Translations under genes and position numbers: made by a program
Part shown: positions 41,785 through 57,103 of the stretch, piece by piece
Layout: each line of letters opens with the position of its first letter
Position numbering within the stretch: the stretch's first letter is position 1
NCBI GenBank assembly: GCA_017438865.1
Contig: JAFRUN010000044.1
Coordinates: 18,765 to 82,764, forward strand
Source of the DNA: Clostridia bacterium
GTDB taxonomy: Bacteria > Bacillota > Clostridia > Christensenellales > CAG-138
DNA length: 64,000 bases
Reading direction: 5' to 3'
Notes under the pieces: model-generated
What the model saw: the letters and a program-made list of their open reading frames with translations, nothing else
Database searches by the model: none
Told to the model about the DNA's origin: nothing

Positions 41785-43155
41785 ATGCAGATTGTGATCG
41801 TCGGCTGCGGCAAAATGGGATCGACGCTTGCGGTGCAGCTCGTTGCGGAGGGACACCGCGTGACCGTCATCGACCGGAGCGAATCGGTCATCGAGCAGAT
41901 CAGCAATACGCAGGACGTCATCGGCTACGTCGGAAACGGCGCGGTCTTTTCCGTGCTGGAGGAGGCGGGCGCGAAGGACGCCGACCTGCTGCTTGCGGTG
42001 ACGCAAAGCGACGAGATCAACCTCCTCGCGTGTCTGATCGCGCATAAGATCGGCGCAAAGCACACGATCGCCCGCGTCCGCGATCCCGAATATGCGAACA
42101 ATATGTACCGTATCTCCGACGATCTCGGGCTTTCGATGACGGTCAATCCGGACCGGCAGGCGGCGGAAGAGATCGCGCGCGTGCTTCGGTTCCCGGCTGC
42201 GATGCACATCGAGCTGTTCGCGCGCGGACATGTGGAGCTGGTCACCTGCAAACTTCCGGAAAAGAGCGTTCTTTCCGGCATTCCGCTTTTTGAACTGCCG
42301 CAGAAGCTCGGCGTGAAGGTTCTGATCTGCGCGGTCGAACGAGACGGCACGTTTACGATCCCGTCCGGCGGATTCACGCTCGCCGGCGGCGACGTGCTGT
42401 ATGTAACCGGCGCGCCCCGCGAAGTGGCGAAGGCGCTGCGCAAGGCGGGCGTGCTGGCGGCGCCGATCCGCTCCGTCATTCTGGGCGGCGGCAGCCGCAT
42501 CAGCTACTATCTTGCGCAGGAGCTTCTGAGAAGCAATATTTCCGTCAAGATCATTGAACGCAGCAGGGACGCCGCGCGCCAGATCGCGGAGCTTCTGCCC
42601 GAAGCGGTCGTCATCAACGGCGATATCACCGATCACGATCTCATGCAGGAGGAGGGTATCGATCGCGCCGACGCGTTCGTTGCGCTGACCGGACTGGACG
42701 AAGGCAACGTCCTTTCCGCGCTGTATGCGAAGCGCCGCAATGTGTCGAAGGTCATTGCAAAGGTCAACAACGACGGACTCGAAAGTCTCGTCAGGGAAAC
42801 GGCGCTGGATTCCGTCATCTCCCCGAAGCGCGTTGCGACGAATCAGATCCTGCGCTACGTTCGCGCCCGCGAAGCGAGCGCGGATCAGGGCGAGATCCGC
42901 GGTCTCTATAAGATTGCGGACGGTTCGATCGAGGTGCTGGAGTTTCGCGCAAGCGCCGAAAACAGCAATCTGCTCAATATCCCGCTGAAGGATCTGAAAA
43001 CGAAAAAGCATCTGCTGATCGCGTGTCTCGTGCGCAACGGCAAGGCGATCATCCCGGGCGGCGCGGACAGCATTCAGACGGGCGACGTTGTGCTCGTCGT
43101 GACGGCGCAGCGCATGATGAACGATCTCGGCGACATCATGGAGGAAACGAAATGA
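41785..43155 (+). CDS. trkA: Trk K+ uptake regulatory subunit (two RCK units)
   Basis: IVGCGKMG, DEINLLAC, GGGSRI; about 456 aa. Confidence 0.93.
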   Translation: MQIVIVGCGKMGSTLAVQLVAEGHRVTVIDRSESVIEQISNTQDVIGYVGNGAVFSVLEEAGAKDADLLLAVTQSDEINLLACLIAHKIGAKHTIARVRDPEYANNMYRISDDLGLSMTVNPDRQAAEEIARVLRFPAAMHIELFARGHVELVTCKLPEKSVLSGIPLFELPQKLGVKVLICAVERDGTFTIPSGGFTLAGGDVLYVTGAPREVAKALRKAGVLAAPIRSVILGGGSRISYYLAQELLRSNISVKIIERSRDAARQIAELLPEAVVINGDITDHDLMQEEGIDRADAFVALTGLDEGNVLSALYAKRRNVSKVIAKVNNDGLESLVRETALDSVISPKRVATNQILRYVRAREASADQGEIRGLYKIADGSIEVLEFRASAENSNLLNIPLKDLKTKKHLLIACLVRNGKAIIPGGADSIQTGDVVLVVTAQRMMNDLGDIMEETK

Positions 43156-44597
43156 ACCGCCGCATGGTCGTATTCCTGCTGGGACGCATTCTGTTCCTGG
43201 AAGCGCTTCTGATGCTCCCGTCCGTACTGGTCGGGATCATCTATCGCGAGGCGATCACCTGGTGCTTCCTGCCGGCGATCGGCGTGCTGGCGCTTCTGGG
43301 ACTGTTCGGGATCAAAAAACCGAAGGACACCGCGATCTACGCGCGCGAGGGTTTTCTGACCGTCGCGGCGGCGTGGGTGCTGATGTCTCTTTTCGGCGCG
43401 GTGCCGCTGTGGCTCTGCGGCGGATTCGAAACGTTCTGGGACTGCCTTTTTGAGATCGTGTCCGGCTTCACCACGACCGGCGCATCGATCCTTGAGACGG
43501 TCGAACAGCTTCCGCACTGCATTCTCTTCTGGCGCAGCTTCAGCCATTGGGTGGGAGGCATGGGCGTGCTGGTGTTCGTTCTGGCGGTCATGCCGATGAG
43601 CGAGGAACGCTCGATGCATCTAATGCGCGCCGAGGTCCCGGGGCCGGTGGTCGGCAAGCTCGTGCCGCGCATGCGCGATACCGCAAAGATCCTCTATGCG
43701 GTTTACACCGTTCTGACGCTTGTTCTGATCATCCTGCTGTGGGTTGGCGGTATGCCGCTGTTCGAGTCGATCTGCCACGCGTTCGGCGCGGCGGGCACCG
43801 GCGGTTTTTCCGTCCGGGACGCAGGGATCAAGGCGTACGACAGTACATATATCCACGTCGTGCTGTCAACGTTCATGCTGCTGTTCGGCATCAACTTCAG
43901 CTTGTACCATCTGATCCTGATCGGGAGATGGAAGAACGCGGTGCGTTCCGAGGAGCTGCATACATATCTCGGCATCATCGCCGCGGCGGTCGTGTTTATC
44001 ACGATCAACACGCTTTCGGCGGCAAAGAGCTTCGGGGTGACATTGCGGGACGCTTATTTCCAGGTCTCGTCGATCATTACGACAACCGGATACGCGACGG
44101 TCAATTTCGACCGGTGGCCGAGCTTTTCCAAGATGATCCTGCTGCTTCTGATGGTATTCGGCGCGTGTGCGGGTTCGACCGGCGGCGGTCTGAAGATCAG
44201 CCGCGTTGTGATCCTGTTCAAATCCGCACGGCAGGAGGTCCGGAAGCTCCTGCACCCGCGCGCGGTCACGGTCGTCCGCATGGAAGGCAAGCCGATCCAG
44301 CCGGATCTGATCCGCGCAACGCTGATCTTTTTCGTGATGTATATCGCTTGCCTTGCGCTCGGCGTGCTTCTGCTGTCGCTCGGCGAGCAGGATTTCGTGA
44401 CGAACTTCACCGCGACGCTCGCGTGCCTTTCCAACATCGGTCCGGGACTCGCCCTCGTCGGTCCGGCCGAAAACTACGGCTTCTACAGCAGCGCGTCGAA
44501 GGTTCTTCTCTCGTTTGAGATGCTTGCGGGCAGATTGGAACTGTTCCCGATCATCATGCTGTTCAGTCCGCTGACCTACCGGCATCGTTCGAAATAA
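43152..44597 (+). CDS. trkH: Trk K+ uptake membrane subunit
   Basis: SGFTTTGAS, GGMGVLV, TTTGY, GSTGGGLK, NIGPG, GRLE. Confidence 0.95.
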   Translation: MNRRMVVFLLGRILFLEALLMLPSVLVGIIYREAITWCFLPAIGVLALLGLFGIKKPKDTAIYAREGFLTVAAAWVLMSLFGAVPLWLCGGFETFWDCLFEIVSGFTTTGASILETVEQLPHCILFWRSFSHWVGGMGVLVFVLAVMPMSEERSMHLMRAEVPGPVVGKLVPRMRDTAKILYAVYTVLTLVLIILLWVGGMPLFESICHAFGAAGTGGFSVRDAGIKAYDSTYIHVVLSTFMLLFGINFSLYHLILIGRWKNAVRSEELHTYLGIIAAAVVFITINTLSAAKSFGVTLRDAYFQVSSIITTTGYATVNFDRWPSFSKMILLLLMVFGACAGSTGGGLKISRVVILFKSARQEVRKLLHPRAVTVVRMEGKPIQPDLIRATLIFFVMYIACLALGVLLLSLGEQDFVTNFTATLACLSNIGPGLALVGPAENYGFYSSASKVLLSFEMLAGRLELFPIIMLFSPLTYRHRSK

Positions 44598-44602
44598 CAT
44601 AC

Positions 44603-44633
44603 AAAAAAGACCGTCGTCGGACGGTCTTTTTTT
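44603..44633. terminator. Bidirectional terminator
   Basis: AAAAAAGACCGTC-gtcg-GACGGTCTTTTTT. Confidence 0.85.
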
Positions 44634-44642
44634 ATTTTGGAT

Positions 44643-45290
44643 TCAATGCAAAATGTGATCCAGCGCTTTCCGCTCCGCTACTGCGAAAATCTCGGCGCCG
44701 GCGAGCAGGACCTGATCGGGATTCATTGTCGCGCTGGTGCGGCCGTTCTCGCGGATCGCCATGATATTGAGCTGGTAACGGTCGCGCAGCTTGAGCTCGC
44801 GCAGCGTTTTGCCGATCCATTCCTTTTTCGGCTTCATGCTGAAAACGCAGAGATCCGATCCGAGGTTGAAAAACTCGAGGAAATCGGAAGACAGCAGCCG
44901 CCGCGCGGTCATTTCCGCGCTCTCCTTTTCGGGGTAGATGATCTCGTCCGCGCCGACGCGCCGCAGAATATCGCCCATCCGCAGGGAAGCGGCTTTTGCA
45001 ATTACGTATCGCACGCCGAGCTCCTTTGCAACCATGACGCACATGATGCTGGCGTCCAGACTGCTGCCCATGGAAACGATGACCGTATCCACGCCGGACA
45101 GCCCCAGTCCCCGGATGACCTCCGGGTCGCTGAGATCGGCTTTGATCGCGCAGCTTACCTGATTTGCAAACTTGCGGATGGTCTCTTCGTCGTTGTCGGC
45201 GATCAGAACGTCCGCGCCGCCTTTGGACAGTTCATCGGTCAAAAACTGTCCGAACCGTCCCATGCCCAGAACTGCGATTGATTTTTTCAT
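44643..45290 (-). CDS. ktrA: KtrA/C-type K+ uptake RCK subunit
   Basis: AVLGMGRFG, GADEIIYPE, RCK_C domain; 215 aa. Confidence 0.85.
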   Translation of the reverse strand: MKKSIAVLGMGRFGQFLTDELSKGGADVLIADNDEETIRKFANQVSCAIKADLSDPEVIRGLGLSGVDTVIVSMGSSLDASIMCVMVAKELGVRYVIAKAASLRMGDILRRVGADEIIYPEKESAEMTARRLLSSDFLEFFNLGSDLCVFSMKPKKEWIGKTLRELKLRDRYQLNIMAIRENGRTSATMNPDQVLLAGAEIFAVAERKALDHILH

Positions 45291-45302
45291 AAAGGCCTCC
45301 TT

Positions 45303-46667
45303 TTAGCCGACATAATAGCGTCCCTGCGCAAAGTGAATGTTCTTTCCGCCGGACAGATCCGTATGGAAGAACAGGGCGAGTGAGATCGGACCGATTCTTC
45401 CGAGATACATGCAAAGAATGATCAGGATCCGTCCGAAGACGGACAGATGGGGCGTCAGTCCGCGGGACAGACCGACCGTTCCGGTCGCGCTGAACACCTC
45501 GAAAACGGCATCTGCCATCGGTACGCCGTCGACGGCGGCGAGCAGAACGGACGAGAGCAGAGACAGCGTTAAGCTGAAGAACAGGATCGCCGCCGCTTTA
45601 CGCACCAGCCCGGACGGGATGCTGCGCCGGAACGCTGCGGACTCCGGACGTCCGCGCACGAAGGACAGCGCGCTCAGAAGCAGAACGGCGATCGTGGCGG
45701 TCTTGATGCCGCCCGCCGTTCCCATCGGGGAGCCGCCGATGAACATCAGGACGCTGCCGAACAGTACGGAGCCGTCGGAAAGACCGCTCTGCGGGATCGC
45801 GGAAAAGCCGGCAGTACGGTAGGTGACCGACTGGAATACGGCGTTCAGGATCTTTCCGCTCCACGGCAGCGCGCCGAGCGTCGCGCCGTTCCGGTATTCC
45901 AGAAGCAGCGTTCCGGCGGCGCCGAGAACGATCAGAATGAGAGTCGCCCACAGAACGAGCTTGGTGTGTTCCCCGAGGTGCCGGAAAAACCAGCGGACGC
46001 CGAACCGGCACTTTGCGGCTCTTTTTGCGGTCGTATACGAATCGAACCACACGATGTAACCGAGACCGCCGACGACGATCAGAAGCATCGTAACGGTCAG
46101 CACATAAACGCTGTTTTGATACGGCAGCAGACTGTCCGGACCGATCAGATCGAGACCGGCGTTGCAGAATGCCGAAACCGAGTGAAACAGCGCGTACCAG
46201 AGCCCGCGGAAAAAGCCGTATTCCGGAACGAATGCGAAAGCATAGAGAATCGTGCCGACGCCCTCGATGAGAAGCACGCCGAGGATGACCTTTCGCAAAA
46301 AACGGAGCACGCCCTGCAGCGAGTCCAGATCGAACGCGTCGCGCAGGATCGCGCGGTTGCGGATCGTGAAGGATTTGCGCAGCAGAAGGAACAGGGAAGA
46401 GGACACGGCGACGATCCCGAGGCCGCCTGCCTGGATGAGCAGAAGGATCACGGCCTTTCCGAAGCCGGACCAGAAGGAGAACGTGTCGGCGACGACAAGA
46501 CCGGTCACGCAGACGGAGGTCGTCGAGGTGAACAGCGCAGTCAGAAAGGATGCGGACGTTCCGTCCGCCGTTGCAAACGGGAGCATCAGAAGACCGGTCC
46601 CGATCGCGATCAGAAACAGGAATCCGAGCGGAACGATCTGTGCGGCGGACATCGAACGGCGTTTCAC
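45303..46667 (-). CDS. ktrB: KtrB/D-type K+ uptake membrane subunit
   Basis: TSVCVTGL, SAFCNAG, RTAGF, GTAGGIK, GTVGLS, GRIGP. Confidence 0.88.
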   Translation of the reverse strand: MKRRSMSAAQIVPLGFLFLIAIGTGLLMLPFATADGTSASFLTALFTSTTSVCVTGLVVADTFSFWSGFGKAVILLLIQAGGLGIVAVSSSLFLLLRKSFTIRNRAILRDAFDLDSLQGVLRFLRKVILGVLLIEGVGTILYAFAFVPEYGFFRGLWYALFHSVSAFCNAGLDLIGPDSLLPYQNSVYVLTVTMLLIVVGGLGYIVWFDSYTTAKRAAKCRFGVRWFFRHLGEHTKLVLWATLILIVLGAAGTLLLEYRNGATLGALPWSGKILNAVFQSVTYRTAGFSAIPQSGLSDGSVLFGSVLMFIGGSPMGTAGGIKTATIAVLLLSALSFVRGRPESAAFRRSIPSGLVRKAAAILFFSLTLSLLSSVLLAAVDGVPMADAVFEVFSATGTVGLSRGLTPHLSVFGRILIILCMYLGRIGPISLALFFHTDLSGGKNIHFAQGRYYVG

Positions 46668-46800: not shown

Positions 46801-46829
46801 TTGAACGAAGCATGAAAAAGCGGTATGAT
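46801..46829 (+). promoter_or_regulatory. Putative sigmaA promoter of the dat-MBOAT operon
   Basis: TTGAAC-17 nt-TATGAT; RBS AAGGAGG before dat. Confidence 0.55.
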
Positions 46830-46864: not shown

Positions 46865-47707
46865 ATGCCCGCGATCGGTTGGTACAACGGAATGCTCGGG
46901 AAACCCGCTGAAATGTCGGTCCCGATGAACGACCGCGCCGTGTATTTCGGCGACGGCTGTTACGAGGCGTGTGTCGCGTTCGGCACGCGCGTGTTCGCGC
47001 TGGACGCGCATTTCGACCGGTTTTACAACAGTTTAAGAGCGCTCGAGATCCCGTTTTCCGAGGATCGCGCCGCGCTGAAAGCGATCCTGACCGGGTGCCT
47101 TCAGGCGGCGGACGAGCCGTGCGCGGTACTCTACTGGCAGGCGTCCCGCGCAACGGCGCCGCGGACGCACGCGTTTCCCGGAAGCGGCGAGCCGAATCTT
47201 CTGGTCACGGTGACGCCGAAAACGCTTCTGCCGCCGGAACGGACGCTGCGTCTCGTCACGACGGAGGACGTCCGCTATGCGATGTGCAACGTAAAGACGC
47301 TGAACCTGATCCCGAACATCCTTGCAAACGAGCACGCAAAGCGCAGCGGCGCGGACGAGGCGGTCTTTGTGCGCAGCGGTTTTGTGACCGAGGGATCGCA
47401 TACGAACGTTCACATCCTGCAGGACGGCGCGTTGATCACGCATCCGACGGACAACCGGATCCTGCCGGGCGTTACGCGCAGGATCCTCCTCGATCTATGC
47501 CGTGAAAACGGTGTTCCGGTCGCGGAGCGTCCGTTTACAACGAAAGAATTGACGAACGCGGACGAGGTGCTGATCACATCCAGCACGCTCGGCGTCCGCC
47601 GCGCAGAAACCGTCGACGGCGTGCCGGTCGGCGGCAGGGCGGAAACGCTTTACAAACGGCTTTTAACGGCATACGGAGAGGTTTTTTCAAGGGAAATGCG
47701 GGCATGA
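46865..47707 (+). CDS. dat: D-amino-acid aminotransferase (PLP fold IV)
   Basis: DRAVYFGDGCYE, D-AAT-type loop PRTHAFP (R-x-H), catalytic K in VKTLNL, EGSHTN, ILPGVTR. Confidence 0.8.
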   Translation: MPAIGWYNGMLGKPAEMSVPMNDRAVYFGDGCYEACVAFGTRVFALDAHFDRFYNSLRALEIPFSEDRAALKAILTGCLQAADEPCAVLYWQASRATAPRTHAFPGSGEPNLLVTVTPKTLLPPERTLRLVTTEDVRYAMCNVKTLNLIPNILANEHAKRSGADEAVFVRSGFVTEGSHTNVHILQDGALITHPTDNRILPGVTRRILLDLCRENGVPVAERPFTTKELTNADEVLITSSTLGVRRAETVDGVPVGGRAETLYKRLLTAYGEVFSREMRA

Positions 47708-49764
47708 AGCAAAGGGAGACGGGGGAAAATCAAACGCAGCGGCATTCGCTGTGGCGTTCCGTACTGACAGGGATTCTGCCGGTCTTTGCGCTTGCGCTCG
47801 CCGTTTCGTTTGTGCTGCTCTGCGTCGCTTACGGCGGCGTCCGTCCGTCCGTGACGATCGAGCTGGGCGAGGATTCGCCCGAGGTCGACGCATTTCTGAG
47901 AAAGGATTTTTCCGATGCGGAATACCTGTCCGCGCCGGAGGCGCACTATACGTCCGCGGGCAATTATCCGGTGCGCGTCTATGCGGACGGACGCACCGTT
48001 CCGGCGGTCCTGAAGGTCCGTGACACGCAGCCGCCGGCTGCGGCGGGAATCGATACGACCGTTCCCGCGGGGAAGGCGCTTTCGCCGGACCGGCTGATCC
48101 GGAACCTGCGCGACGGCAGCGTTGTCAAGGTCACATATGAATCCAGGCCGGATTTCGACGCCGTCGGCGATTACGAAGCGGTCATTCTTCTGGAGGATGC
48201 GAGCGGAAACAGCTCGCGCGTCTTTTCAACGGTGCATGTGCGTACCGTCAGGGACGAGGTGATCGCGGAGGCGGGCGGTCCCGCGCCGGACGCGGACGCG
48301 TTTCTGGTCGGCGCATATGCCGACATAACGCTTTCGCCGATCACCGACGCCATGCTGCGTGAGCCGGGCGAATACCCGATCCGCATCACGACGGACGGGA
48401 TCGAAGCAGAAAGCCGTCTTATCGTGCGCGACACGGTCCCGCCGCAGGGCGAGGGCGTCACGTTCATCGCCGCGCCGGGCGAACAGATCCGTCCGGAACA
48501 GCTTGTGACCGGCATCGTCGACGAGACCGAGGTGACCGCGTCGTTCCTTTCGGAGCCGGATCCCGACAGTCTGGATTCGCAGACGGTCGGCGTAGTCCTG
48601 ACCGACCGCGGCGGCAATGAAACGACGGTGTACGCGACGCTGCTGTTTACAAACGTAAAGCCGGTCGAGATCGAGGCGCGCACCGCGCAGCTCGATATTT
48701 CCGAACTTCTCGAAGAGGGGACGTATACCGAAGCGTCGCTGGATCCGTTCATCCCGGACGATCCCGGCCTGCATGTGCTTGCGGTCACGATCGACGGAAA
48801 GCGCAACCTCGCGCTGGTCGAGGTCCGCGACACGACGCCGCCCGAGATCAAAACGGTCAACGCCAAACGGTATCTGAACACGCCGGTCGACGCGGCGGCG
48901 CTTGTGAGCGTTACGGACCCGACGGAAACGGAGATCAGCTTCGTTTCGGAGCCGGACTGGACGAAGGAAAAACAGGAGGTGACGGTCGCCGCGACCGATT
49001 CGAGCGGCAACCGCAGCGAAAAGACCTTCACGCTGAAGCTGGTCGCCGATACCGAACCGCCGCATCTGTACGGCGTGAACGACCGCTACTGCTATACCGG
49101 CGAGCCGGTCGCGTACTTTGCCGAGGTCTATGCATGGGACGAATGCGACGGCGAAGTCGACGTGCAGGTCGACGCCTCGAAGGTCAACAGCGAAAAGTCC
49201 GGGGATTATCCCGTGTTCTATACCGCAACGGACAAGGCGGGCAATACGGCGCGTAAAACGGTGTTCTTCCGGTTTGTGACGCCGCAGGTCGACGAACAGC
49301 GCGCGCAGGAGGTCGCGGACAAATACATCGCGAAGATCCTGACCGACGATATGACGCTTGCCGAGCAGATCGAAGCGATCTATAACTACATCTTCAAAAA
49401 TTTGCGCTACAGCGCCCGGTCGAACAAATGGGACTGGCGCGGCGAAGCGGTCCGCGGGCTGACGACCGGCAGGGGCGACTGCTTCACCGCCTATGCCGCG
49501 GCGCGCCTGCTGCTTGAGCAGACGGACGCGCAGGTCGTCGCCGTACAGCGGATGAGCGAGACCTCGCATCATTACTGGATGTTCGTCAATATCGGCACGG
49601 GCTGGTATCACTTCGACGCCTGCAACGCATGGTCGGGGAAGAAGCGCTGCTTTATGTGGACGGACGCGCAGACGCGCCGGATCAGCAAATCCTACTGGCG
49701 TTACGACAAAACGCTGTACCCGCCGGTTGCGACGGAGCCGTACAACGGAGGAAACGGATCATGA
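47704..49764 (+). CDS. Membrane-anchored protein with Ig-like repeats and a C-terminal transglutaminase-like domain
   Basis: N-terminal TM; repeated VRDTxPP / DxxGN Ig-like units; triad GDCF, HYW, WYHFD. Confidence 0.85.
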   Translation: MKQRETGENQTQRHSLWRSVLTGILPVFALALAVSFVLLCVAYGGVRPSVTIELGEDSPEVDAFLRKDFSDAEYLSAPEAHYTSAGNYPVRVYADGRTVPAVLKVRDTQPPAAAGIDTTVPAGKALSPDRLIRNLRDGSVVKVTYESRPDFDAVGDYEAVILLEDASGNSSRVFSTVHVRTVRDEVIAEAGGPAPDADAFLVGAYADITLSPITDAMLREPGEYPIRITTDGIEAESRLIVRDTVPPQGEGVTFIAAPGEQIRPEQLVTGIVDETEVTASFLSEPDPDSLDSQTVGVVLTDRGGNETTVYATLLFTNVKPVEIEARTAQLDISELLEEGTYTEASLDPFIPDDPGLHVLAVTIDGKRNLALVEVRDTTPPEIKTVNAKRYLNTPVDAAALVSVTDPTETEISFVSEPDWTKEKQEVTVAATDSSGNRSEKTFTLKLVADTEPPHLYGVNDRYCYTGEPVAYFAEVYAWDECDGEVDVQVDASKVNSEKSGDYPVFYTATDKAGNTARKTVFFRFVTPQVDEQRAQEVADKYIAKILTDDMTLAEQIEAIYNYIFKNLRYSARSNKWDWRGEAVRGLTTGRGDCFTAYAAARLLLEQTDAQVVAVQRMSETSHHYWMFVNIGTGWYHFDACNAWSGKKRCFMWTDAQTRRISKSYWRYDKTLYPPVATEPYNGGNGS

Positions 49765-51254
49765 AATCGGTGCTTGACGATCTGAAAAAACAGGCGGCGC
49801 TGCGTCCGGATCAGATGATGTTTTGGGATGAGTCGGAAACGCTGACGTTTGCGGACGCCGCTGCGCGGTCCGACGCAATCGGCAGCGCGCTTTTAAGCCG
49901 GCGGGCGAACCGCGAGCCGGTGCTGGTGTTCATGCGCCGCGGCGGGGCGATGATCGCCGCGTTTTTCGGCGTGTGGAAGGCGAACTGCTTCTATGTGCCG
50001 GTCGACGCCGAAATGGGTGAGGCGCGCATCCGGTCCATCGTCGAACGGGTGCAGCCGCGGTTTGCGATCGCGGACGGCTCCGCCGATCCGCTGCTCTCCT
50101 CCTGCGGGTTTGCGGGCGAACGGCTCGACGCAAACGCGATCCTTTCAAAACCGGTCGATCCCGATGCGCTGGGAGCGGCGGAACGGGCGATGCTCGATTC
50201 CGATCCGGCGTATCTCGTATTTACAAGCGGCAGCACCGGCGCGCCGAAGGGCGTCGTGGGCGTGCACCGCGCGGTGCTCGATTATGCGGAGCAGATTACA
50301 AAAACGCTTCGCGCCGACGAGACCGACGTGTTCGGTATGCAGGCGCCGCTGTATGTGGATGCGTGTCTGAAAGAGATCCTGTCCGCACTGCGCTGCGGCT
50401 CGCGCGTGGTGCTCGTTCCGAAAAAGCTGTTTCTGACGCCGGTCCCGCTGACGGAGTTTCTGAACGCGCACCGCGTCACGACGCTGTGCTGGGTGGTTCC
50501 CGCGCTGACGCTGATCTCCGCGCTGCATACGTTCGACGCGGTCGTGCCGCAGTATCTGAAGACCGTTGCGTTCGGCAGCGAGGTCATGCCGCCGAAGCAG
50601 CTTAAAATCTGGCGCGACCATGTTCCCGCGCGATATCTCAATCTGTACGGGCCGACCGAATGCACGGGTATGTCCTGCTTCTACGAGGTCGACCGCGATT
50701 TTTCGGACGGCGACCGGATTCCGATCGGGCACGCATTCGACAATACCGAACTCTTTCTGATCGACGAAAACGGAAACCGCGCGAACGAGGGCGAGATTTT
50801 GATCCGCGGAACGGCGGTATGTCACGGCTATTTCCGCGATCCCGAACGCACCGCGGCGGCGTTTGTGCAGAATCCGTTGAATCCCGATTATCCGGAAACG
50901 GTGTACCGCACCGGCGATCTCGGACGGATCAACGACCGCGGCGAGCTGGAGTTTCTCGGCCGCAAAGACGATCAGATCAAGCATATGGGGCACCGCATCG
51001 AGCTCGGCGAGCTGGAAGCGGCGGCAAAGACCGTCGAGGGGATCGATGCCGCCTGCGCGGTATTCGACCGCGGGCGAAGCGTATTGGGACTGGTGTATGC
51101 CGGCGCTGCGGAAAAGGCGGAGCTGCTTGCGGCGCTGCGCAAAAAACTCCCCGAATACCTGCTGCCGAAGCAGACCGTGCGCGTCGACGCGCTGCCGCTG
51201 ACCGAAAACGGCAAGACCGACCGGAAGGCGGCGTGTGCAATGCTGTACCGATAG
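49761..51254 (+). CDS. Stand-alone amino-acid adenylation enzyme (DltA-like)
   Basis: FTSGSTGAPKG, NLYGPTE, YRTGD, GHRIELGE, LTENGKTDR. Confidence 0.92.
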   Translation: MKSVLDDLKKQAALRPDQMMFWDESETLTFADAAARSDAIGSALLSRRANREPVLVFMRRGGAMIAAFFGVWKANCFYVPVDAEMGEARIRSIVERVQPRFAIADGSADPLLSSCGFAGERLDANAILSKPVDPDALGAAERAMLDSDPAYLVFTSGSTGAPKGVVGVHRAVLDYAEQITKTLRADETDVFGMQAPLYVDACLKEILSALRCGSRVVLVPKKLFLTPVPLTEFLNAHRVTTLCWVVPALTLISALHTFDAVVPQYLKTVAFGSEVMPPKQLKIWRDHVPARYLNLYGPTECTGMSCFYEVDRDFSDGDRIPIGHAFDNTELFLIDENGNRANEGEILIRGTAVCHGYFRDPERTAAAFVQNPLNPDYPETVYRTGDLGRINDRGELEFLGRKDDQIKHMGHRIELGELEAAAKTVEGIDAACAVFDRGRSVLGLVYAGAAEKAELLAALRKKLPEYLLPKQTVRVDALPLTENGKTDRKAACAMLYR

Positions 51255-51262
51255 GAGGGGCT

Positions 51263-51496
51263 ATGGAAAAGCTGCTGGATATTTTAAGGGAGCTGCATCC
51301 CGAAACGGACTTTGAGACGGAGACGCGTCTCGTCGACGGCGGCGTTCTTTCCTCGTTCGATATCGTGATGCTGATCACGCGGATCGAGGAGGAGTTCGAC
51401 GTCGTGATCCCGGCAAGGGATATCGTTCCGGAACACTTCAATTCCGCAAAGGCGCTTTATACGCTGATCGAAAAAATCTCGGAGCAGGACGACTGA
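51263..51496 (+). CDS. Carrier protein (DltC-like ACP)
   Basis: GVLSSFDIVML, EEEFDVVI, EHFNS; RBS AGGAGG; 77 aa. Confidence 0.9.
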   Translation: MEKLLDILRELHPETDFETETRLVDGGVLSSFDIVMLITRIEEEFDVVIPARDIVPEHFNSAKALYTLIEKISEQDD

Positions 51497-53073
51497 TGCT
51501 GTTCACGTCGTGGGCGTTTCTTCTGTTTCTGGCAGTACTCGTGCCCGTGTACTTTCTGGTGCCGAAACGGATCCAATGGATCGTGCTTTTGCTCTTCAAC
51601 GCGGTTTTCGTCTGCGCTGCGGGGGTTCTCGGCGCGGTCTTCATGGTCGTGACGATCGGCACGGTGTACGCGGCGTCGCGCGCGATCGACGCGCTGTATT
51701 CCCGTCAGCGCGAGACGCTTGCAGCCATAAAGGAAACGCACACGAAGGAGGAACGGAAACAGACGCGCCTGCGGTTCGAAAAACGCCGGCGGCTCGTTCT
51801 GATCGCGTGTCTCGCCGTCAATTTCGGCATCCTGTTCGTGCTGAAATACGGCGCGATGATCGGGCGCTTCTCCGCGGCGCTGTTCGGTACGCGCGCGTTC
51901 GGGCAGGATCTTGCGCTCACGATGGGCATTTCGTTCTATACGTTTTCCACGGTCGGGTACCTGCTTGACGTATACCGCGAAACGATCCCGGCGGAAAAAA
52001 ACCCCCTGAAGCTCGCGCTGTTCACCTCGTTTTTCCCGCTTCTGGTGCAGGGACCGATCACGCGCTTTGAAACGGTCGGACGAGCTTTACTCGAACCGCA
52101 TTCGTTCGACGGACAGCGGTTTTTGTCGGCAGGTCTTCGCATCGCGTGGGGGTACTGGAAAAAGCTGATCGTCGCCGACCGGCTGCTCGTTGCGGTCAAG
52201 GCGCTCTGCGCGCGACCGGACGTGTATCGCGGGGATTTTATCCTTGTCGAAATGCTCCTCTACGCCGCGTGCCTCTATGCAGATTTCACGGGCGGCGTCG
52301 ACATCACGATCGGCGTGGGCGAACTGCTGGGCGTCCGGATCGAGGAAAACTTCCTGCGCCCGTATTTTTCCAAGAGCATCTCCGAATACTGGCGGCGCTG
52401 GCACATCACGCTCGGCGAATGGTTCAAGCGCTACGTCTATTATCCGCTGTCGGTTTCTAAACCGATGCGCGCGCTGTCGAAGGGCACACGGAAACTCGGC
52501 GCCGGCGTTTCGCGGCGCGTTCCGGTATATCTGGCGACGCTGCTCGTATGGGCGCTGACCGGCGCGTGGCACGGCAGCAGACCGACGTTCCTCGTCTGGG
52601 GACTTTTGAACGGCGCGGTGATCCTGATCTCCGAGGAGCTGAAGCCGCTTTACGCGCGGTTTCATAAGCGCTCTCCGCGGCTTACAGCGAGCGCGTTTTA
52701 CCGCGGGTTTACCGTGATCCGCACGGTGCTGCTGCTGTCATCGCTGCGCATCCTCGACTGCTACGGCACGATAAAGGAAGCGTTTTCGTCCTTTTTCTCG
52801 ATGTTCACAACGTGGAACTGGGGCGCGGTGTTCCGCGGCGGGATCCAATCGCTGGGGCTTTCGTATACCGACTATGCGATCGCCGGTCTCGGCGTGATCG
52901 CGATGTTCGCGCTGTCGATGACGCAGCGAAAGGGCGCGATCCGGCTGCGCATCCGAAAACGCGGAACGGTGTTTTCCGTCTGCATGCTGCTCGTGCTGAT
53001 CGGCACGATCCTGATCTTCGGGCGTTACGGCTTCGGCTTCGATGCGTCCCAGTTTATCTATAACCGGTTCTGA
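51496..53073 (+). CDS. MBOAT O-acyltransferase (AlgI/DltB-like) with C-terminal FIYxxF motif
   Basis: MGISFYTF, ENFLRPYFS, WRRWHITL, GAWHG; ends SQFIYNRF. Confidence 0.93.
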   Translation: MLFTSWAFLLFLAVLVPVYFLVPKRIQWIVLLLFNAVFVCAAGVLGAVFMVVTIGTVYAASRAIDALYSRQRETLAAIKETHTKEERKQTRLRFEKRRRLVLIACLAVNFGILFVLKYGAMIGRFSAALFGTRAFGQDLALTMGISFYTFSTVGYLLDVYRETIPAEKNPLKLALFTSFFPLLVQGPITRFETVGRALLEPHSFDGQRFLSAGLRIAWGYWKKLIVADRLLVAVKALCARPDVYRGDFILVEMLLYAACLYADFTGGVDITIGVGELLGVRIEENFLRPYFSKSISEYWRRWHITLGEWFKRYVYYPLSVSKPMRALSKGTRKLGAGVSRRVPVYLATLLVWALTGAWHGSRPTFLVWGLLNGAVILISEELKPLYARFHKRSPRLTASAFYRGFTVIRTVLLLSSLRILDCYGTIKEAFSSFFSMFTTWNWGAVFRGGIQSLGLSYTDYAIAGLGVIAMFALSMTQRKGAIRLRIRKRGTVFSVCMLLVLIGTILIFGRYGFGFDASQFIYNRF

Positions 53074-53074
53074 T

Positions 53075-54115
53075 ATGAAACGAGAGCTTAAAACCGCAAT
53101 CGGCATTCTGCTAGCCTGCATCGTGTTTTTCGGAGCGCTGTCCGCGCTTACGCGTCTTGCTGCGCCGAAGTATCACGACACGCTGATCGACGGGCATCTG
53201 ACCGGTGAATACTACGATGAAAAGACGGATCACGACGTGCTGTTCGTCGGCGACTGCGAGGTGTACGAGAACTTCTCGCCGGTCACGCTTTATAACGAAT
53301 ACGGCGTCACGTCCTATATCCGCGGCGGCGCGCAGCAGCTCGTCTGGCATTCGTATTATTTTCTGAAGGACGCGTTGAGGGCCGAAACGCCGAAGGTCGT
53401 CGTCTTCAACGTTCTTTCGCTGAGATACGGCGAGCCGCAGTCCGAGGCGTATAACCGCCTTGCTTTGGACGGCATGCGCTGGGGCGCCGCGAAGGTCGGT
53501 GCGATCAAAGCGAGCATGACCGGGGGCGAGGACTTCATGAGCTATGTGTTCCCGCTTCTCCGGTATCACGACCGCATCACGGCGCTGACGGCGGAGGATT
53601 TCGAATACTGGTTCAAAAAAGGCGATCCGGTTTCGTTCAAGGGCTATATGATGCACACGGGCGTCGAACCCGCCGCGGAAACGCCGCAGGAGATCTATGA
53701 ACCGAACCTGCCCGAGCAGAGCTTCGCATGGCTTGAAAAAATCGCGGCGCTGTGTGAGGAGAACGGGATCGCGCTGGTGCTGATCAAATCGCCTTCGATC
53801 TATCCGGAATGGCATCCGGAATGGGACGCCGAGATCGCGGCGTTTGCAAAGGCGCACGGAGTGCGGTATGACAACATGATCACGGAAAACGATGCGATCG
53901 GCATCGATATGCAGACCGATACCTACGATCAGGGACAGCATCTGAACGTTTACGGCGCGGAAAAGCTCTCGCGCTGGTTCGGGAAGGTCCTAAAAGAGGC
54001 ATACGGATTAAAGGATCACCGGGGCGAGGCGGCTTACGATGCGGACTACGCGGCGCTGACCGAACGGTACGAGGCGGAAAAACAGAGACAGCTTTCGGAG
54101 GAAAACGGAGCATGA
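53075..54115 (+). CDS. SGNH-like extracellular acyltransferase (DltD/AlgJ-like)
   Basis: N-terminal TM; block I FVGDCE; DQGQHLN (D..H). Confidence 0.8.
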   Translation: MKRELKTAIGILLACIVFFGALSALTRLAAPKYHDTLIDGHLTGEYYDEKTDHDVLFVGDCEVYENFSPVTLYNEYGVTSYIRGGAQQLVWHSYYFLKDALRAETPKVVVFNVLSLRYGEPQSEAYNRLALDGMRWGAAKVGAIKASMTGGEDFMSYVFPLLRYHDRITALTAEDFEYWFKKGDPVSFKGYMMHTGVEPAAETPQEIYEPNLPEQSFAWLEKIAALCEENGIALVLIKSPSIYPEWHPEWDAEIAAFAKAHGVRYDNMITENDAIGIDMQTDTYDQGQHLNVYGAEKLSRWFGKVLKEAYGLKDHRGEAAYDADYAALTERYEAEKQRQLSEENGA

Positions 54116-54648
54116 AACGAACGATACTTTTTTTGACGGCGCTGCTTATGCTTGCGGCGATCGGCTGCGGACCGGCGAAAGCAGACGATCCGAACACGGT
54201 GTTCATCGATCCGAACGCGGTGCGCGGCGGCGAGTACGGCGATCTGTACTTTGAAGCATACGGCGTGCGCTTCGGCATCTACGACGAAACGGAACAGGTC
54301 CTTTCGGCGCTGCCCGCGTACAACAGCACGTTTTCGGAACAGTCCTGCGCGTTTCCGGGTGCAGACGTCAGCTATTCGTTCGGCGGATTCCGGATCATGA
54401 CCAATGAGATCGACGGCGTCAGCCGCATTACGGGGATCTCGGTAAAGGACGACACCGTGAAAACGCCGCAGGGCCTGTATATCGGCATGTCCGAGGCGGA
54501 CGCGCGCGCGGCGTTTCCGGCGCTTCCGGAAAGCGACTGGAACGCGGAGGACGGCACGGCGCTGCTGTCGGTGATCGTGGAGGACGGCTTCGTCACGCGC
54601 ATCGAGTATTCGCCTGCGGTCGGGGAGGATGGATATGCGATTCCGTAA
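54112..54648 (+). CDS. Hypothetical lipoprotein
   Basis: Lipobox AIGC; KTPQGLYIGMS; ATGA overlap with upstream gene. Confidence 0.75.
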   Translation: MKRTILFLTALLMLAAIGCGPAKADDPNTVFIDPNAVRGGEYGDLYFEAYGVRFGIYDETEQVLSALPAYNSTFSEQSCAFPGADVSYSFGGFRIMTNEIDGVSRITGISVKDDTVKTPQGLYIGMSEADARAAFPALPESDWNAEDGTALLSVIVEDGFVTRIEYSPAVGEDGYAIP

Positions 54649-54847
54649 AACACCGAAAAAAACGTTCGACGCCGAACATTTCATACCGGCGATCCGGCAA
54701 AGCATCTGCACCGGCGAGCGCGTCGCCGGGTTTGTGAACCGCGAGACCGGCGGATTTTCCGAGGTCATGCTGATCCGCACGGAAAAGGACCTCGACGCGT
54801 TCCGCGCGCAGTACGGGATCGATGGCGCAATCAAAACGATCTATTGA
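54635..54847 (+). CDS. Small conserved hypothetical protein (SICTGE motif)
   Basis: PAIRQSICTGERVAGF...EVMLIR...FRAQYGI; RBS GGAGG; followed by terminator. Confidence 0.7.
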   Translation: MRFRKTPKKTFDAEHFIPAIRQSICTGERVAGFVNRETGGFSEVMLIRTEKDLDAFRAQYGIDGAIKTIY

Positions 54848-54883
54848 AAAAAGACTGTTCCGATTTCGGAACAGTCTTTTTTT
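54847..54883. terminator. Bidirectional terminator
   Basis: AAAAAGACTGTTCCGA-tt-TCGGAACAGTCTTTTT. Confidence 0.85.
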
Positions 54884-54894
54884 GACGGTGAAGA

Positions 54895-55362
54895 TTATCT
54901 GCCGGATTTTACAGCCGCTGTGATAACCAGTACAACGATGATGATGATCAGGATGACGAACATCACAATGCTCAGGATCAGACCGACGATCGAAACGATG
55001 CTGCCGACCTTTGCAAAGATGCCGCTGACCTTCGCTTTTTTCGCAAGCCCGGCCGGACCGATCTGATAGCCCGCTTCCCGGAATTTGCGCACCATACCTC
55101 TTGCGATCGCCGAGAAAATGATGCCGAGCAGACTCGTATACGGGTTTGTACCGAAGGCAACGCCGACGATCGAGAAGATCATCAGCGTCAGCGCCTTGGA
55201 AAAGCCGTTGTCGGAAACGGGCTCTTCCGGTGCTGCCGGCTCCGGCACGATCTCCGTGACGGGTTCTTCAACGACGGCTTCGCGCACTTCGACCGGCGCG
55301 CCGCAGTTCGGGCAGAATTTATCCGTGTTGTTCAGTTCACTGCCGCAGTTTTGACAAAACAT
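54895..55362 (-). CDS. Zinc-ribbon membrane protein
   Basis: MFCQNCG...FCPNCG, hydrophobic C-terminal helices; RBS AGGAGG. Confidence 0.85.
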   Translation of the reverse strand: MFCQNCGSELNNTDKFCPNCGAPVEVREAVVEEPVTEIVPEPAAPEEPVSDNGFSKALTLMIFSIVGVAFGTNPYTSLLGIIFSAIARGMVRKFREAGYQIGPAGLAKKAKVSGIFAKVGSIVSIVGLILSIVMFVILIIIIVVLVITAAVKSGR

Positions 55363-55385
55363 ATGAATGCCTCCTTTTGTTATTC

Positions 55386-56015
55386 TCAGAATCCAAGCGT
55401 ATCGTTGACGAGGATCACATGGATCCGATCCTTATGACGGGAATATCTGGTGACCAGGAATTGGCAGCAGATTGTGTCGGGCGATTTGCAGTTCATGCAT
55501 GTGCCGACCTTGGAACACGGCGTGGAGAGACCGAACCGCTGGGCGTTCATCGGCGCCGCGACGCTTCTGGCGCGCTTCATGGCGCTGTCGATGTCGGGGC
55601 AGACCTTGTTCATGCCGACGATGAACAGCACATGCTTCGGTCCCTGCGCAATGCAGGATACGCGGTTTGCGTTGCCGTCGATGTTGACGAGCACGCCGTC
55701 GTCGGTCATCGCATTCGCGCTCGAAAGGAAGAAATCGGCGTCGTATGCCGCCAGCAGCGCAGCGCGCGGATCATTGAACGCGCCGCGGTCGATGAAACGG
55801 TAATTTCCCGCCTTGATCGCGTCGATCAGTCCGATCTCGCGTGCGCTCACCGTTCCGCCCATCGTGACCGAGCTGCCCTCGGGGATCAGCGAAAGCGCGA
55901 TGCGCTTCGCTTCCTCGCGGTCCTTTGCATAATAGCCCGTCATGTTGCGGGATTCGAGCCCCCTGATGACCTTCTGCGCCAGTAATTCGTTGCGTTTGAC
56001 AATGTTCGGATCCAT
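55386..56015 (-). CDS. LUD-domain (lactate utilization) protein
   Basis: SSANA, NIDGNANRV, GPKHV..VGMNKV, C-terminal Cys cluster. Confidence 0.85.
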   Translation of the reverse strand: MDPNIVKRNELLAQKVIRGLESRNMTGYYAKDREEAKRIALSLIPEGSSVTMGGTVSAREIGLIDAIKAGNYRFIDRGAFNDPRAALLAAYDADFFLSSANAMTDDGVLVNIDGNANRVSCIAQGPKHVLFIVGMNKVCPDIDSAMKRARSVAAPMNAQRFGLSTPCSKVGTCMNCKSPDTICCQFLVTRYSRHKDRIHVILVNDTLGF

Positions 56016-56084
56016 GGTTTTCCCTCCGTATTCTGATACTCTATTATACCGCCGGAGCGGGCGGGCGTGTCAATCCCTTTTATA

Positions 56085-56114
56085 AAAAAGACCGCATCCC
56101 GAAGGATACGGTTT
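56085..56114 (-). terminator. Terminator after degV
   Basis: ACCGTATCC-ttcg-GGATGCGGT-CTTTTT on minus strand. Confidence 0.7.
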
Positions 56115-56122
56115 GTTCCGGC

Positions 56123-57007
56123 TTACCGTTCTTTTCCGAAGAAAAAGACGGCAACCGTGCCCGGACCGGCGTGACAGCCGATGATCGCGCCGATATAGTA
56201 GACCTCGATCTCGCCTTTGATGTGCGGAAAGCGCTCCTCAACCTGCGCTTTCAGCGCCAGCGCGTCATCGATGCAGTCGGAATGGCTGATGAAGCAGCGG
56301 CCGGAATAGTTTTCGCCGCCGTCCGCAAGCTCCGCCATTTGATCGACCAAGGCGCGAAGCGCACGCTTCTTGGTGCGCACGCGGGAATGGACCGCAAGAT
56401 GCCCCGGATGATCCATGCGCATCACTGGGCAGATGCCGAGGAGATTTCCGATCCTGCCGGCGGCGGGGGAGATGCGTCCGCCGCGCATGTAATAGGTCAG
56501 CGTGGTCGAGCAGAACAGATGCTGGATGCGAAGACGGTTGCCGATCGCCCAGTCATAGAGCTCGTCGATCGATTTGCCCTCGTCGCGCAGGTCCGCCAGC
56601 GCCTGGATCAGAAAACCGAAGCCGGACGATGCGCCGCGGGAATCGACGATCAGGAGCTTTCGTTCCGGGAACCGCTCTTTCATGATGTCGACGGAAGCAA
56701 GCGCGGCCTGAAACGTGCCGGAAAGACCGCTCGAAAGCGTAACGTGCAGGATGTCCCTGTTCTCCTCGGTAAAGAGCTTTGTAAAGTAATCGACGTAATC
56801 GGCGGTGTTGATCAGCGTCGTGACGCCGACCTCGCCTGCGCGGATACGGTCGTAAAATTCGCGGTACGGCATGGTCTTGCCGAGATCGTCCTTATAGGGA
56901 ACGCCGTCCATCGTATAGTCGCTGCAGATCATTTTCACATCCAGCGAATCCAGTTTCTCCTGCGTCAGGTCGACGGGCGAGCAGCAGCTCAGAATGTAAT
57001 CGTGCAT
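56123..57007 (-). CDS. DegV-family fatty-acid-binding protein
   Basis: LSSGLSGTFQ, VDSRGAS, RGGRIS, IGCHAGPG; RBS GAGGAGG. Confidence 0.93.
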   Translation of the reverse strand: MHDYILSCCSPVDLTQEKLDSLDVKMICSDYTMDGVPYKDDLGKTMPYREFYDRIRAGEVGVTTLINTADYVDYFTKLFTEENRDILHVTLSSGLSGTFQAALASVDIMKERFPERKLLIVDSRGASSGFGFLIQALADLRDEGKSIDELYDWAIGNRLRIQHLFCSTTLTYYMRGGRISPAAGRIGNLLGICPVMRMDHPGHLAVHSRVRTKKRALRALVDQMAELADGGENYSGRCFISHSDCIDDALALKAQVEERFPHIKGEIEVYYIGAIIGCHAGPGTVAVFFFGKER

Positions 57008-57103
57008 GATGATCCTCCTCATTCGCGCTAACTTCATATCATAGTATAGATACGGTCTCCGCGGAAAGGCAATCTATTGCAGCAAACCTGCGCTCTATCG
57101 ATG

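Follow-up and report, generated by a model that had tools for sequence, protein, structure and literature searches.

A seemingly undescribed, carrier-fed MBOAT–SGNH cassette, probably for envelope acylation, in a rumen member of the Clostridia

The stretch of contig JAFRUN010000044.1 analysed here (64,000 nucleotides, positions 18,765 to 82,764 of the forward strand, assembly GCA_017438865.1, from a rumen member of the Clostridia), referred to below as the window, encodes at 46865-54847 a run of eight plus-strand genes, g1 to g8, which contains a real and widespread cassette; as far as could be found, it is an undescribed variant on the MBOAT–SGNH systems for envelope acylation. On balance it seems likely, given the functions predicted for these genes, that this cassette is a relay, fed by a carrier protein, which would aminoacylate an envelope component with an acidic D-amino acid. 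The original prediction for the region had described a Dlt-like operon in which a dedicated D-amino acid, D-glutamate, is made, activated, exported and attached to the cell surface; the outline of that idea holds, and its choice of amino acid is probably wrong.

The Dlt system is, to our knowledge, the only carrier-fed MBOAT–SGNH pathway whose mechanism has been worked out. In a 2025 paper (PMC12148441), non-Dlt MBOAT–SGNH pathways are described as having no carrier protein, and the cassette would break this rule by combining carrier-fed input with a PatA-type MBOAT to which the tyrosine shuttle is fused. A cysteine also takes the place of the catalytic serine in the final transferase, and two conserved surface proteins are added. 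About one in ten of the sampled genomes of the class has the cassette, and the gene set is common in gut Clostridia. If the envelope of these bacteria carries an acidic D-amino acid tag, this could alter its surface charge, the way in which phages adsorb to it and the host recognises it, and the sensitivity of the cells to antimicrobial peptides.

A conserved six-gene unit

The genes of the region are the following.

46865..47707, plus strand: g1 (dat), D-amino-acid transaminase-like protein (class IV, pyridoxal phosphate-dependent; PF01063, TIGR01121 and PDB matches)
47704..49764, plus strand: g2, membrane-anchored stalk of immunoglobulin (Ig)-like repeats with a C-terminal transglutaminase-like Cys-His-Asp domain (Transglut_core and Ig-like matches)
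49761..51254, plus strand: g3, stand-alone amino-acid adenylation enzyme (AMP-binding, TIGR01733)
51263..51496, plus strand: g4, carrier protein of 77 amino acids (PP-binding)
51496..53073, plus strand: g5, MBOAT with the C-terminal acyl-shuttle motif FIYNRF (PF03062)
53075..54115 (alternative start 53042), plus strand: g6, predicted SGNH-fold transferase anchored in the membrane, Cys72 occupying the nucleophile position (predicted fold)
54112..54648, plus strand: g7, lipoprotein outside the named families, with an invariant Cys79-Ala80 (lipobox)
54629..54847, plus strand: g8, small protein of 72 amino acids that rides on the operon outside the conserved cassette (synteny)

All eight predicted genes are present as plus-strand reading frames in the open reading frame listing, and the four overlapping stop and start codons that had been reported read as written: ATGA at 47704-47707 (where dat and g2 share 4 nt), at 49761-49764 and at 54112-54115, and TGATG at 51494-51498 between g4 and g5. 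The other junctions consist of a gap of 8 nt from the adenylation gene to the carrier gene, a gap of 1 nt from the MBOAT stop at 53073 to the g6 ATG at 53075 if g6 starts there, and an overlap of 20 nt between g7 and g8. The longer g6 frame from 53042 is probably unused, since the relatives of g6 begin at the position equivalent to 53075.

The distribution of the genes was followed by a pattern scan of species-level genomes with an alignment of g6, and the best 80 loci, 18 of the genus type and 62 others, were examined. Among the 599 pattern matches listed, at least 576 loci encode a confirmed relative of g6, and the labels found there include Christensenellales, Oscillospiraceae, Lachnospiraceae, Agathobacter, Blautia, Dorea, Mediterraneibacter, Oscillibacter and others. 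Within the genus of the source genome a g6 orthologue is present in 22 of the 24 other genomes, and the order g2 to g7 is kept in every one of the 15 genus loci that were fetched. Outside the genus, where the best 80 loci allowed each gene to be tested, the transglutaminase-like gene was found in 47 of 53 loci, the adenylation gene in 49 of 55, the MBOAT gene in 54 of 59 and a lipoprotein gene after g6 in 56 of 58. The conserved unit is six genes, g2 to g7, encoding in order the transglutaminase-like protein, adenylation enzyme, carrier, MBOAT, SGNH protein and lipoprotein. Of the 301 genomes in an even sample of the class, 30 have a g6 orthologue (E<=1e-50), and these belong to 15 of the 178 genera sampled.

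Both the aminotransferase and the transglutaminase had been proposed to belong to the module. The gene neighbourhoods just described uphold this for the transglutaminase, which is syntenic with the adenylation, carrier and MBOAT genes well outside the genus, but not for dat, which accompanies 14 of the 18 genus-type loci and none of the 62 others. In the 15 fetched genus loci dat adjoins the cassette in 12 of the 13 that could be tested, and dat is missing too from the two genus genomes that have no cassette; the gene is a genus-level addition that stands outside the conserved core. The inclusion of the small eighth gene in the system does not survive either, as g8 lies by the cassette in only 4 of the 15 genus loci, at a variable distance, and the 62 loci from outside the genus all lack it. 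The family of g8 consists of proteins of about 70 amino acids (164 hits), and g8 itself has no match in Pfam or NCBIfam; one relative of 74 aa goes under the NCBI name "aspartate dehydrogenase", which was rejected as implausible at such a size and lacking Pfam support.

The relay proteins and their relation to known pathways

The adenylation enzyme g3 matches the AMP-binding family of Pfam at 212.6 bits and TIGR01733 at 317.1 bits (cut-off 317.4), while on the DltA models it scores 240-254 bits against cut-offs of 476-560 (on TIGR01734, 240.2 against 559.85, which is under half). The substrate pocket was compared in an alignment of 89 sequences that includes three DltA-type enzymes, two of them over the TIGR01734 cut-off and one just under it at 544.7 bits. 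The cassette enzymes have the motifs D-A-x-x-K, CWV, (A/C)FGSE and NLYGPTE-x-TGM, whereas the three DltA-type enzymes have D-L-x-x-M/L, FLFCGE and N-T/L-YGPTE-x-TVAV; a glycine occupies the position of the DltA cysteine, and the remaining variable code positions differ as well. In keeping with the original prediction, these differences suggest that the enzyme is not of the D-alanine type. Lys204 is kept in all 86 of the aligned sequences that are not DltA, and Asp200 and the lysine of NGKTDRK (the equivalents of Asp235 and Lys517) are conserved in the family. The pocket motifs are nearly invariant across lineages and are the same in cassettes linked to dat and in those linked to a racemase gene (described below), so that the cargo of the two kinds of cassette is probably the same. 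A model search of the source genome found no DltA over the cut-off. A nonribosomal peptide synthetase (NRPS) or other secondary-metabolite function was considered and rejected, the operon having neither a condensation nor a thioesterase domain. The carrier g4 matches PP-binding at 22.5 bits (cut-off 20.8) and the DltC model at 34 bits (cut-off 68), and its Ser31 is invariant in 72 of 72 relatives.

The MBOAT protein g5 scores 56.8 bits on PF03062 and 131 bits on the DltB model, whose cut-off is 375, and it is 36-41% identical to MBOAT paralogues of the same genome that have no adenylation gene, as against 26-29% identical to DltB. His303 and His359 are invariant among its relatives, three DltB sequences included, while a C-terminal F-x-Y-x-x-F/Y is present in all 70 full-length relatives and in none of the three DltB. 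In PMC12148441, FXYXXF is described as an acyl-shuttle motif by whose tyrosine the acyl group is conveyed from the MBOAT to its SGNH partner, the motif being located on the microprotein DltX in Dlt and fused to the C-terminus in PatA and other MBOATs. Judged by its sequence, g5 is a putative PatA/AlgI-like MBOAT with a fused shuttle, which the original prediction had missed.

The assignment of g6 as an SGNH protein holds for its predicted fold and is without support from sequence families: single-sequence and profile searches of g6 gave no match in Pfam, NCBIfam or the PDB, whereas an AlphaFold2 model built from an alignment of 41 relatives (pLDDT 93.2, pTM 0.90) matches SGNH hydrolases with Z scores of 11-13, PatB among them at 11.1. 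The longest structural alignments are to DltD, with Z scores of 11.3-11.4 over 236-238 residues. Block I of g6 reads GDC rather than GDS, and this is so in 76 of the 80 loci by pattern, the other four having failed the pattern match; Cys72 follows strand 55-59 of the model and stands at the start of a helix. The block V aspartate and histidine are represented by the invariant Asp293, Asp296 and His300. Three more distant paralogues carry a serine in the Cys72 column. The predicted nucleophile position of this SGNH protein is thus occupied by a cysteine, a feature that had also gone unnoticed.

Two proteins predicted to lie at the cell surface complete the unit. The first, g2, has an N-terminal hydrophobic segment at about residues 20-40, DTxPP linkers at 107, 243, 376 and 449, Ig-like hits, and a Transglut_core match of 33.5 bits (cut-off 23) at residues 543-639; each of the residues Cys593, His623 and Asp638 is retained by 63 of the 64 relatives, and a sequence search of the PDB with g2 gave no useful match. 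In some members of the genus (L032, L033, L034, L053-L056) the g2-type gene is duplicated in tandem, with 38-43% identity to g2. The second, g7, has the lipobox AIGC and invariant residues Cys79, Ala80, Asp114, Gly121 and Gly125. It has no match in Pfam or NCBIfam and its Atlas model has no named structural neighbour, and its family comprises 3717 cluster representatives at E<=1e-3. At three of the 80 loci (L080, L092 and L099) g6 and g7 form one open reading frame, a fusion that the original prediction did not report. The database protein P0163 (548 aa) is likewise a g6-g7 fusion, in which the lipoprotein signal is retained in the middle of the protein. A further protein, P0262 (424 aa), has a membrane anchor and a g2-type Ig stalk ending in a g7 domain, which replaces the transglutaminase domain.

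The closest known system is Dlt (DltA, DltC, DltB, DltX and DltD), which performs teichoic acid D-alanylation in Firmicutes and which, like the cassette, brings together in one operon an adenylation enzyme of the cytoplasm, a small carrier, an MBOAT and an SGNH protein anchored in the membrane, with a D-amino acid as the likely cargo and an acyl-tyrosine shuttle motif. The cassette differs from it in the adenylation pocket and in scoring below the cut-offs of all Dlt models; in having the shuttle motif fused to the MBOAT in place of a DltX, for which the tightly packed junctions leave no room as an extra small gene; in the SGNH nucleophile, which is a serine in DltD and a cysteine here, the histidine and aspartate being kept; and in the addition of the conserved transglutaminase-like protein and g7 and of a supply gene for Dat or an aspartate-type racemase. 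Being unlike DltA, unlike DltB and DltX, and unlike DltD in its serine, the cassette is, by its sequence features, not a Dlt operon, and the expectation of a Dlt-like relay that departs from the canonical dlt arrangement is borne out. The O-acetyltransferase pairs PatA/PatB and AlgI/AlgJ resemble the cassette in having an MBOAT of about 500 residues that ends in FXYXXF and a separate SGNH partner. They differ in using acetyl-CoA as the donor and, according to PMC12148441, in having no carrier, while the cassette encodes an adenylation enzyme and a carrier and has a cysteine in its SGNH protein. To judge from its motifs the cassette fits the definition of an MBOAT–SGNH pair, except in the serine and the acyl-CoA donor.

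A third comparison concerns the wall use of D-aspartate. Lactococci and enterococci build a D-aspartate cross-bridge by means of an aspartate racemase and an ATP-grasp D-aspartate ligase that acts on the peptidoglycan precursor in the cytoplasm. That route shares with the cassette an aspartate racemase dedicated to the use of D-aspartate in the wall, and differs from it in employing an ATP-grasp ligase and no known carrier, MBOAT or SGNH protein. No description of the cassette was found in the open-access literature, subscription journals and supplements being outside the search.

The same genus and another family also contain a paralogous cassette (L035:5340-10676, L036:3293-9602 on the minus strand, and L037:8001-14312), which consists of an adenylation enzyme, a GNAT acetyltransferase, a carrier, an MBOAT ending in FIYQQF and an SGNH protein with a serine. 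The SGNH protein is 686-689 aa in length in two of these loci, the gene order varies, and no transglutaminase, dat or g7 gene is present; the adenylation enzyme again has a lysine at the position equivalent to 239 of the NRPS specificity code.

Cargo, acceptor and competing explanations

The genes linked to the cassette bear out the prediction of a dedicated D-amino acid supply, of which there are two kinds: dat in the genus, and in 30 of the 62 loci outside the genus-type group a gene of the aspartate racemase type, in or beside the cassette. The g1 protein scores 163 bits on PF01063 (Aminotran_4), over the cut-off, and 193.9 bits on the equivalog TIGR01121, below its cut-off of 277.45; its best PDB match is the Bacillus D-amino-acid aminotransferase 3DAA (E 2e-44), and its closest solved relatives are Bacillus enzymes of this kind. 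It keeps the active-site residues aligned to Tyr31, Arg98, His100 and Lys145 of 3DAA. The linked racemases have about 240 residues, and their genes are located between the transglutaminase-like and adenylation genes, upstream on either strand, or downstream. They score 204-224 bits on TIGR00035 (cut-off 93), and their best PDB match is the Pyrococcus aspartate racemase at 190 bits over nearly the full length, compared with 42 bits for glutamate racemase. In the class sample a racemase gene is found in 19 of the 29 cassette-bearing genomes and in 55 of the 271 others, an enrichment that counts for less than it appears to, being overstated by the non-independence of related genomes; in 10 of the 19 the gene lies within 6 kb of g6. 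The only genome with such a racemase among 28 of the genus, G022, is the very one in which dat does not adjoin the cassette. The source genome has MurI (224 bits) and Alr, and no aspartate-type racemase was found in its assembly, which is 79.5% complete.

In one locus an asparaginase gene directly follows the lipoprotein gene (L078:11235-12236), and in another a fused L,D-transpeptidase/D-Ala-D-Ala carboxypeptidase follows the cassette (L099:11501-13333). Beside the cassettes that have neither racemase nor dat no consistent supply enzyme was found; their neighbours are heterogeneous and include a Sel1-repeat protein, a periplasmic binding protein, an L,D-transpeptidase/carboxypeptidase fusion and an M14 peptidase with peptidoglycan-binding domains.

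The specificity code of NRPS adenylation domains provides a second line of evidence on the cargo. A lysine at code position 239 is a mark of the domains that activate glutamate, and in g3 this position is presumably Lys204, with alanine at 236 and glycine at 301, on our own mapping of the ten code positions onto the g3 motifs. The ten positions are listed in PMC12283262, which also quotes the codes for Glu/Gln and Asp/Asn, the Asp codes having a lysine at 278, and states that an Asp-type code takes cysteic acid as well. Genomic context points to D-aspartate and the NRPS analogy to glutamate; D-aspartate should probably be ranked above D-glutamate, because the linked racemases are of the aspartate type and the genome already has MurI. 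On this weighing, D-aspartate may tentatively be named as the cargo; that the cargo is neither of the two acids appears doubtful, and D-glutamate, taken by itself, somewhat more doubtful still.

The genes and how far they are conserved, together with the sequence motifs and the predicted fold, lead us to infer the following course of events. Dat, or in other lineages an enzyme of the aspartate racemase type, would make a D-amino acid with an acidic side chain, which g3 would activate and load onto Ser31 of g4. The MBOAT g5 would then carry the cargo across the membrane to the tyrosine in its own FIYNRF motif, from which Cys72 of g6 would accept it as a thioester, and g6 together with the lipoprotein g7 would hand it to an acceptor in the envelope. 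The transglutaminase-like Cys-His-Asp enzyme g2, on its Ig stalk, would act on the acceptor or the product. A more speculative extension, which we consider unlikely, is a chain of thioesters running from the MBOAT tyrosine to Cys72 and possibly on to Cys79 of g7 or the cysteine of g2, and leaving a D-aspartyl or D-glutamyl group bound by an amide to peptidoglycan or some other wall polymer at a distance from the membrane. If true, this would be a new modification of the wall that adds negative charge, the opposite of D-alanylation, and it would be present in many abundant Clostridia of the gut and rumen.

Several observations tell against this relay or against D-aspartate as its cargo. One genus (L130, L132, L133 and L134) has g6, with GDC, and g7 among several transglutaminase-like Ig-stalk genes with no adenylation, carrier or MBOAT gene nearby, and three of its four checked genomes lack an orthologue of the adenylation enzyme (E<=1e-40). 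The linked racemases also pass the NCBI cysteate racemase model, at 196-215 bits against a cut-off of 190, and TIGR00035 is a broad "amino acid racemase" family. Ten of the 29 cassette-bearing genomes of the class sample have no aspartate-type racemase, and of five such genomes that were checked two have a gene resembling that of a D-amino-acid aminotransferase elsewhere and three have none; G022 for its part also has a 41%-identical dat-like gene elsewhere. As a mark of an acidic cargo, Lys239 derives from a rule for NRPS glutamate domains for which no supporting passage was found in the open-access literature. The same lysine favours Glu over Asp on the NRPS analogy, since Asp codes carry their lysine at 278 (PMC12283262).

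The loci of L130 and its relatives imply that g2, g6 and g7, the extracellular trio, hold together more closely than the rest of the system and may work with another feed; the transglutaminase-like proteins could then serve as partners, as final transferases or as targets. Within L132:6675-13777 a family-2 glycosyltransferase (GT2) occupies the place of the adenylation enzyme, carrier and MBOAT.

Among the competing explanations, the one that fares best is the original proposal that the cargo is D-glutamate, made by Dat from D-alanine and 2-oxoglutarate, and that the transglutaminase cross-links or edits the product. It agrees with the aminotransferase-like character and preserved key residues of g1, and Lys239, Ala236 and Gly301 are nearer to the Glu/Gln codes of NRPSs than to the Asp codes quoted in PMC12283262. 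It is nevertheless unlikely in this form and its choice of cargo does not hold up well, as the genome can already draw on MurI, other lineages recruit a gene of the aspartate racemase and not of the MurI type (190 bits as against 42 in the comparison above), the identity of the pocket motifs in dat-linked and racemase-linked cassettes indicates that the cargo is probably one and the same, and an asparaginase accompanies one locus.

Somewhat less credible is an explanation in which proteins are the targets, the Ig-stalk transglutaminase-like proteins or g7 serving as acceptors or covalent carriers, so that the system would modify surface proteins and not glycopolymers. The linkage of g6 and g7 to transglutaminase-like genes where adenylation, carrier and MBOAT genes are not nearby, with multiple transglutaminase-like hits per locus, would fit such a role, as would the tandem duplication of these genes in some genus members, the invariant cysteine of g7, and the presence in P0262 of a g7 domain instead of the transglutaminase on the same type of Ig stalk. 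Against it, the catalytic triad is retained by 63 of the 64 relatives, which speaks for an enzyme and not for a passive target, and the characterised MBOAT–SGNH pairs all act on glycopolymers according to PMC12148441.

Still less probable is an explanation in which the cargo is some other compound, for instance D-cysteate, an L-amino acid or else a neutral D-amino acid, or depends on the lineage. The passing scores of the linked racemases on the cysteate racemase model and the acceptance of cysteic acid by an Asp-type code (PMC12283262) favour the first of these, and some cassette-bearing genomes have neither a racemase nor an aminotransferase-like gene; but the pocket motifs are nearly invariant across lineages, the solved protein that the linked racemases match best is an aspartate racemase, and Dat and the racemase both point to the D form. 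Finally, a divergent but ordinary Dlt system, in which teichoic acids are D-alanylated and Dat tops up the D-alanine, is very improbable: the gene order is that of Dlt, DltA, DltC and DltB are the best NCBIfam names after a generic adenylation-domain model, DltD gives the longest structural alignment to g6 and the genome yielded no other DltA, but all Dlt models score far under their cut-offs, the pocket lacks the DltA cysteine and differs at the other variable code positions, Alr is present, the shuttle motif forms part of the MBOAT itself and is not carried by DltX, the nucleophile of g6 is a cysteine, and the partner racemases are of the aspartate type.

Signals, transcripts and flanking genes

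Two features that bear on transcription were identified next to the genes.

46801..46829, plus strand: promoter-like site TTGAAC-17-TATGAT (9 of 12 consensus positions)
about 54844..54885, strand not assigned: intrinsic terminator hairpin with A-run and T-run arms (folding energy compared with shuffles)

The single promoter of the original prediction rests on a match at 9 of 12 positions in a region that has three promoter-like sites where 2.3 are expected by chance, and it is not substantiated; a Shine-Dalgarno-like AAAGGAGGG precedes the ATG of g1 at 46865. The single terminator is well founded. The hairpin, from which the end of g8 is 1 nt distant, has a folding energy of -25.7 kcal/mol (z -6.7) that none of 200 shuffles equalled, and the region scan found internal terminator-like sites at a frequency not above chance (16 against 10.7 expected). 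With its arms of A and T runs the hairpin could serve both strands.

In sequencing libraries, the share of the sampled words is no higher than 0.21 in the best runs; it is 0.11 in the sole run that is firmly recorded as RNA. The library contigs are 90-95% alike to the operon and thus derive from relatives. The RNA-recorded run, a metatranscriptome, gave short fragments and one contig of 201 nt over a close relative of g8; other contigs span the MBOAT/g6 and g6/g7/g8 junctions, the RNA status of their source libraries being only a guess.

The flanking genes look unrelated to the cassette, to judge from a reading of their translations by eye. Upstream, at 43023-46667, three open reading frames resemble potassium uptake genes, two of them TrkH-like (43023-44597 on the plus strand and 45303-46667 on the minus strand) and one TrkA-like, and the potassium uptake-like pair adjoins the cassette in some members of the genus only. 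Downstream, at 54895-57037 on the minus strand, there are genes for a small zinc-ribbon-like membrane protein and for proteins of 209 and 304 amino acids.

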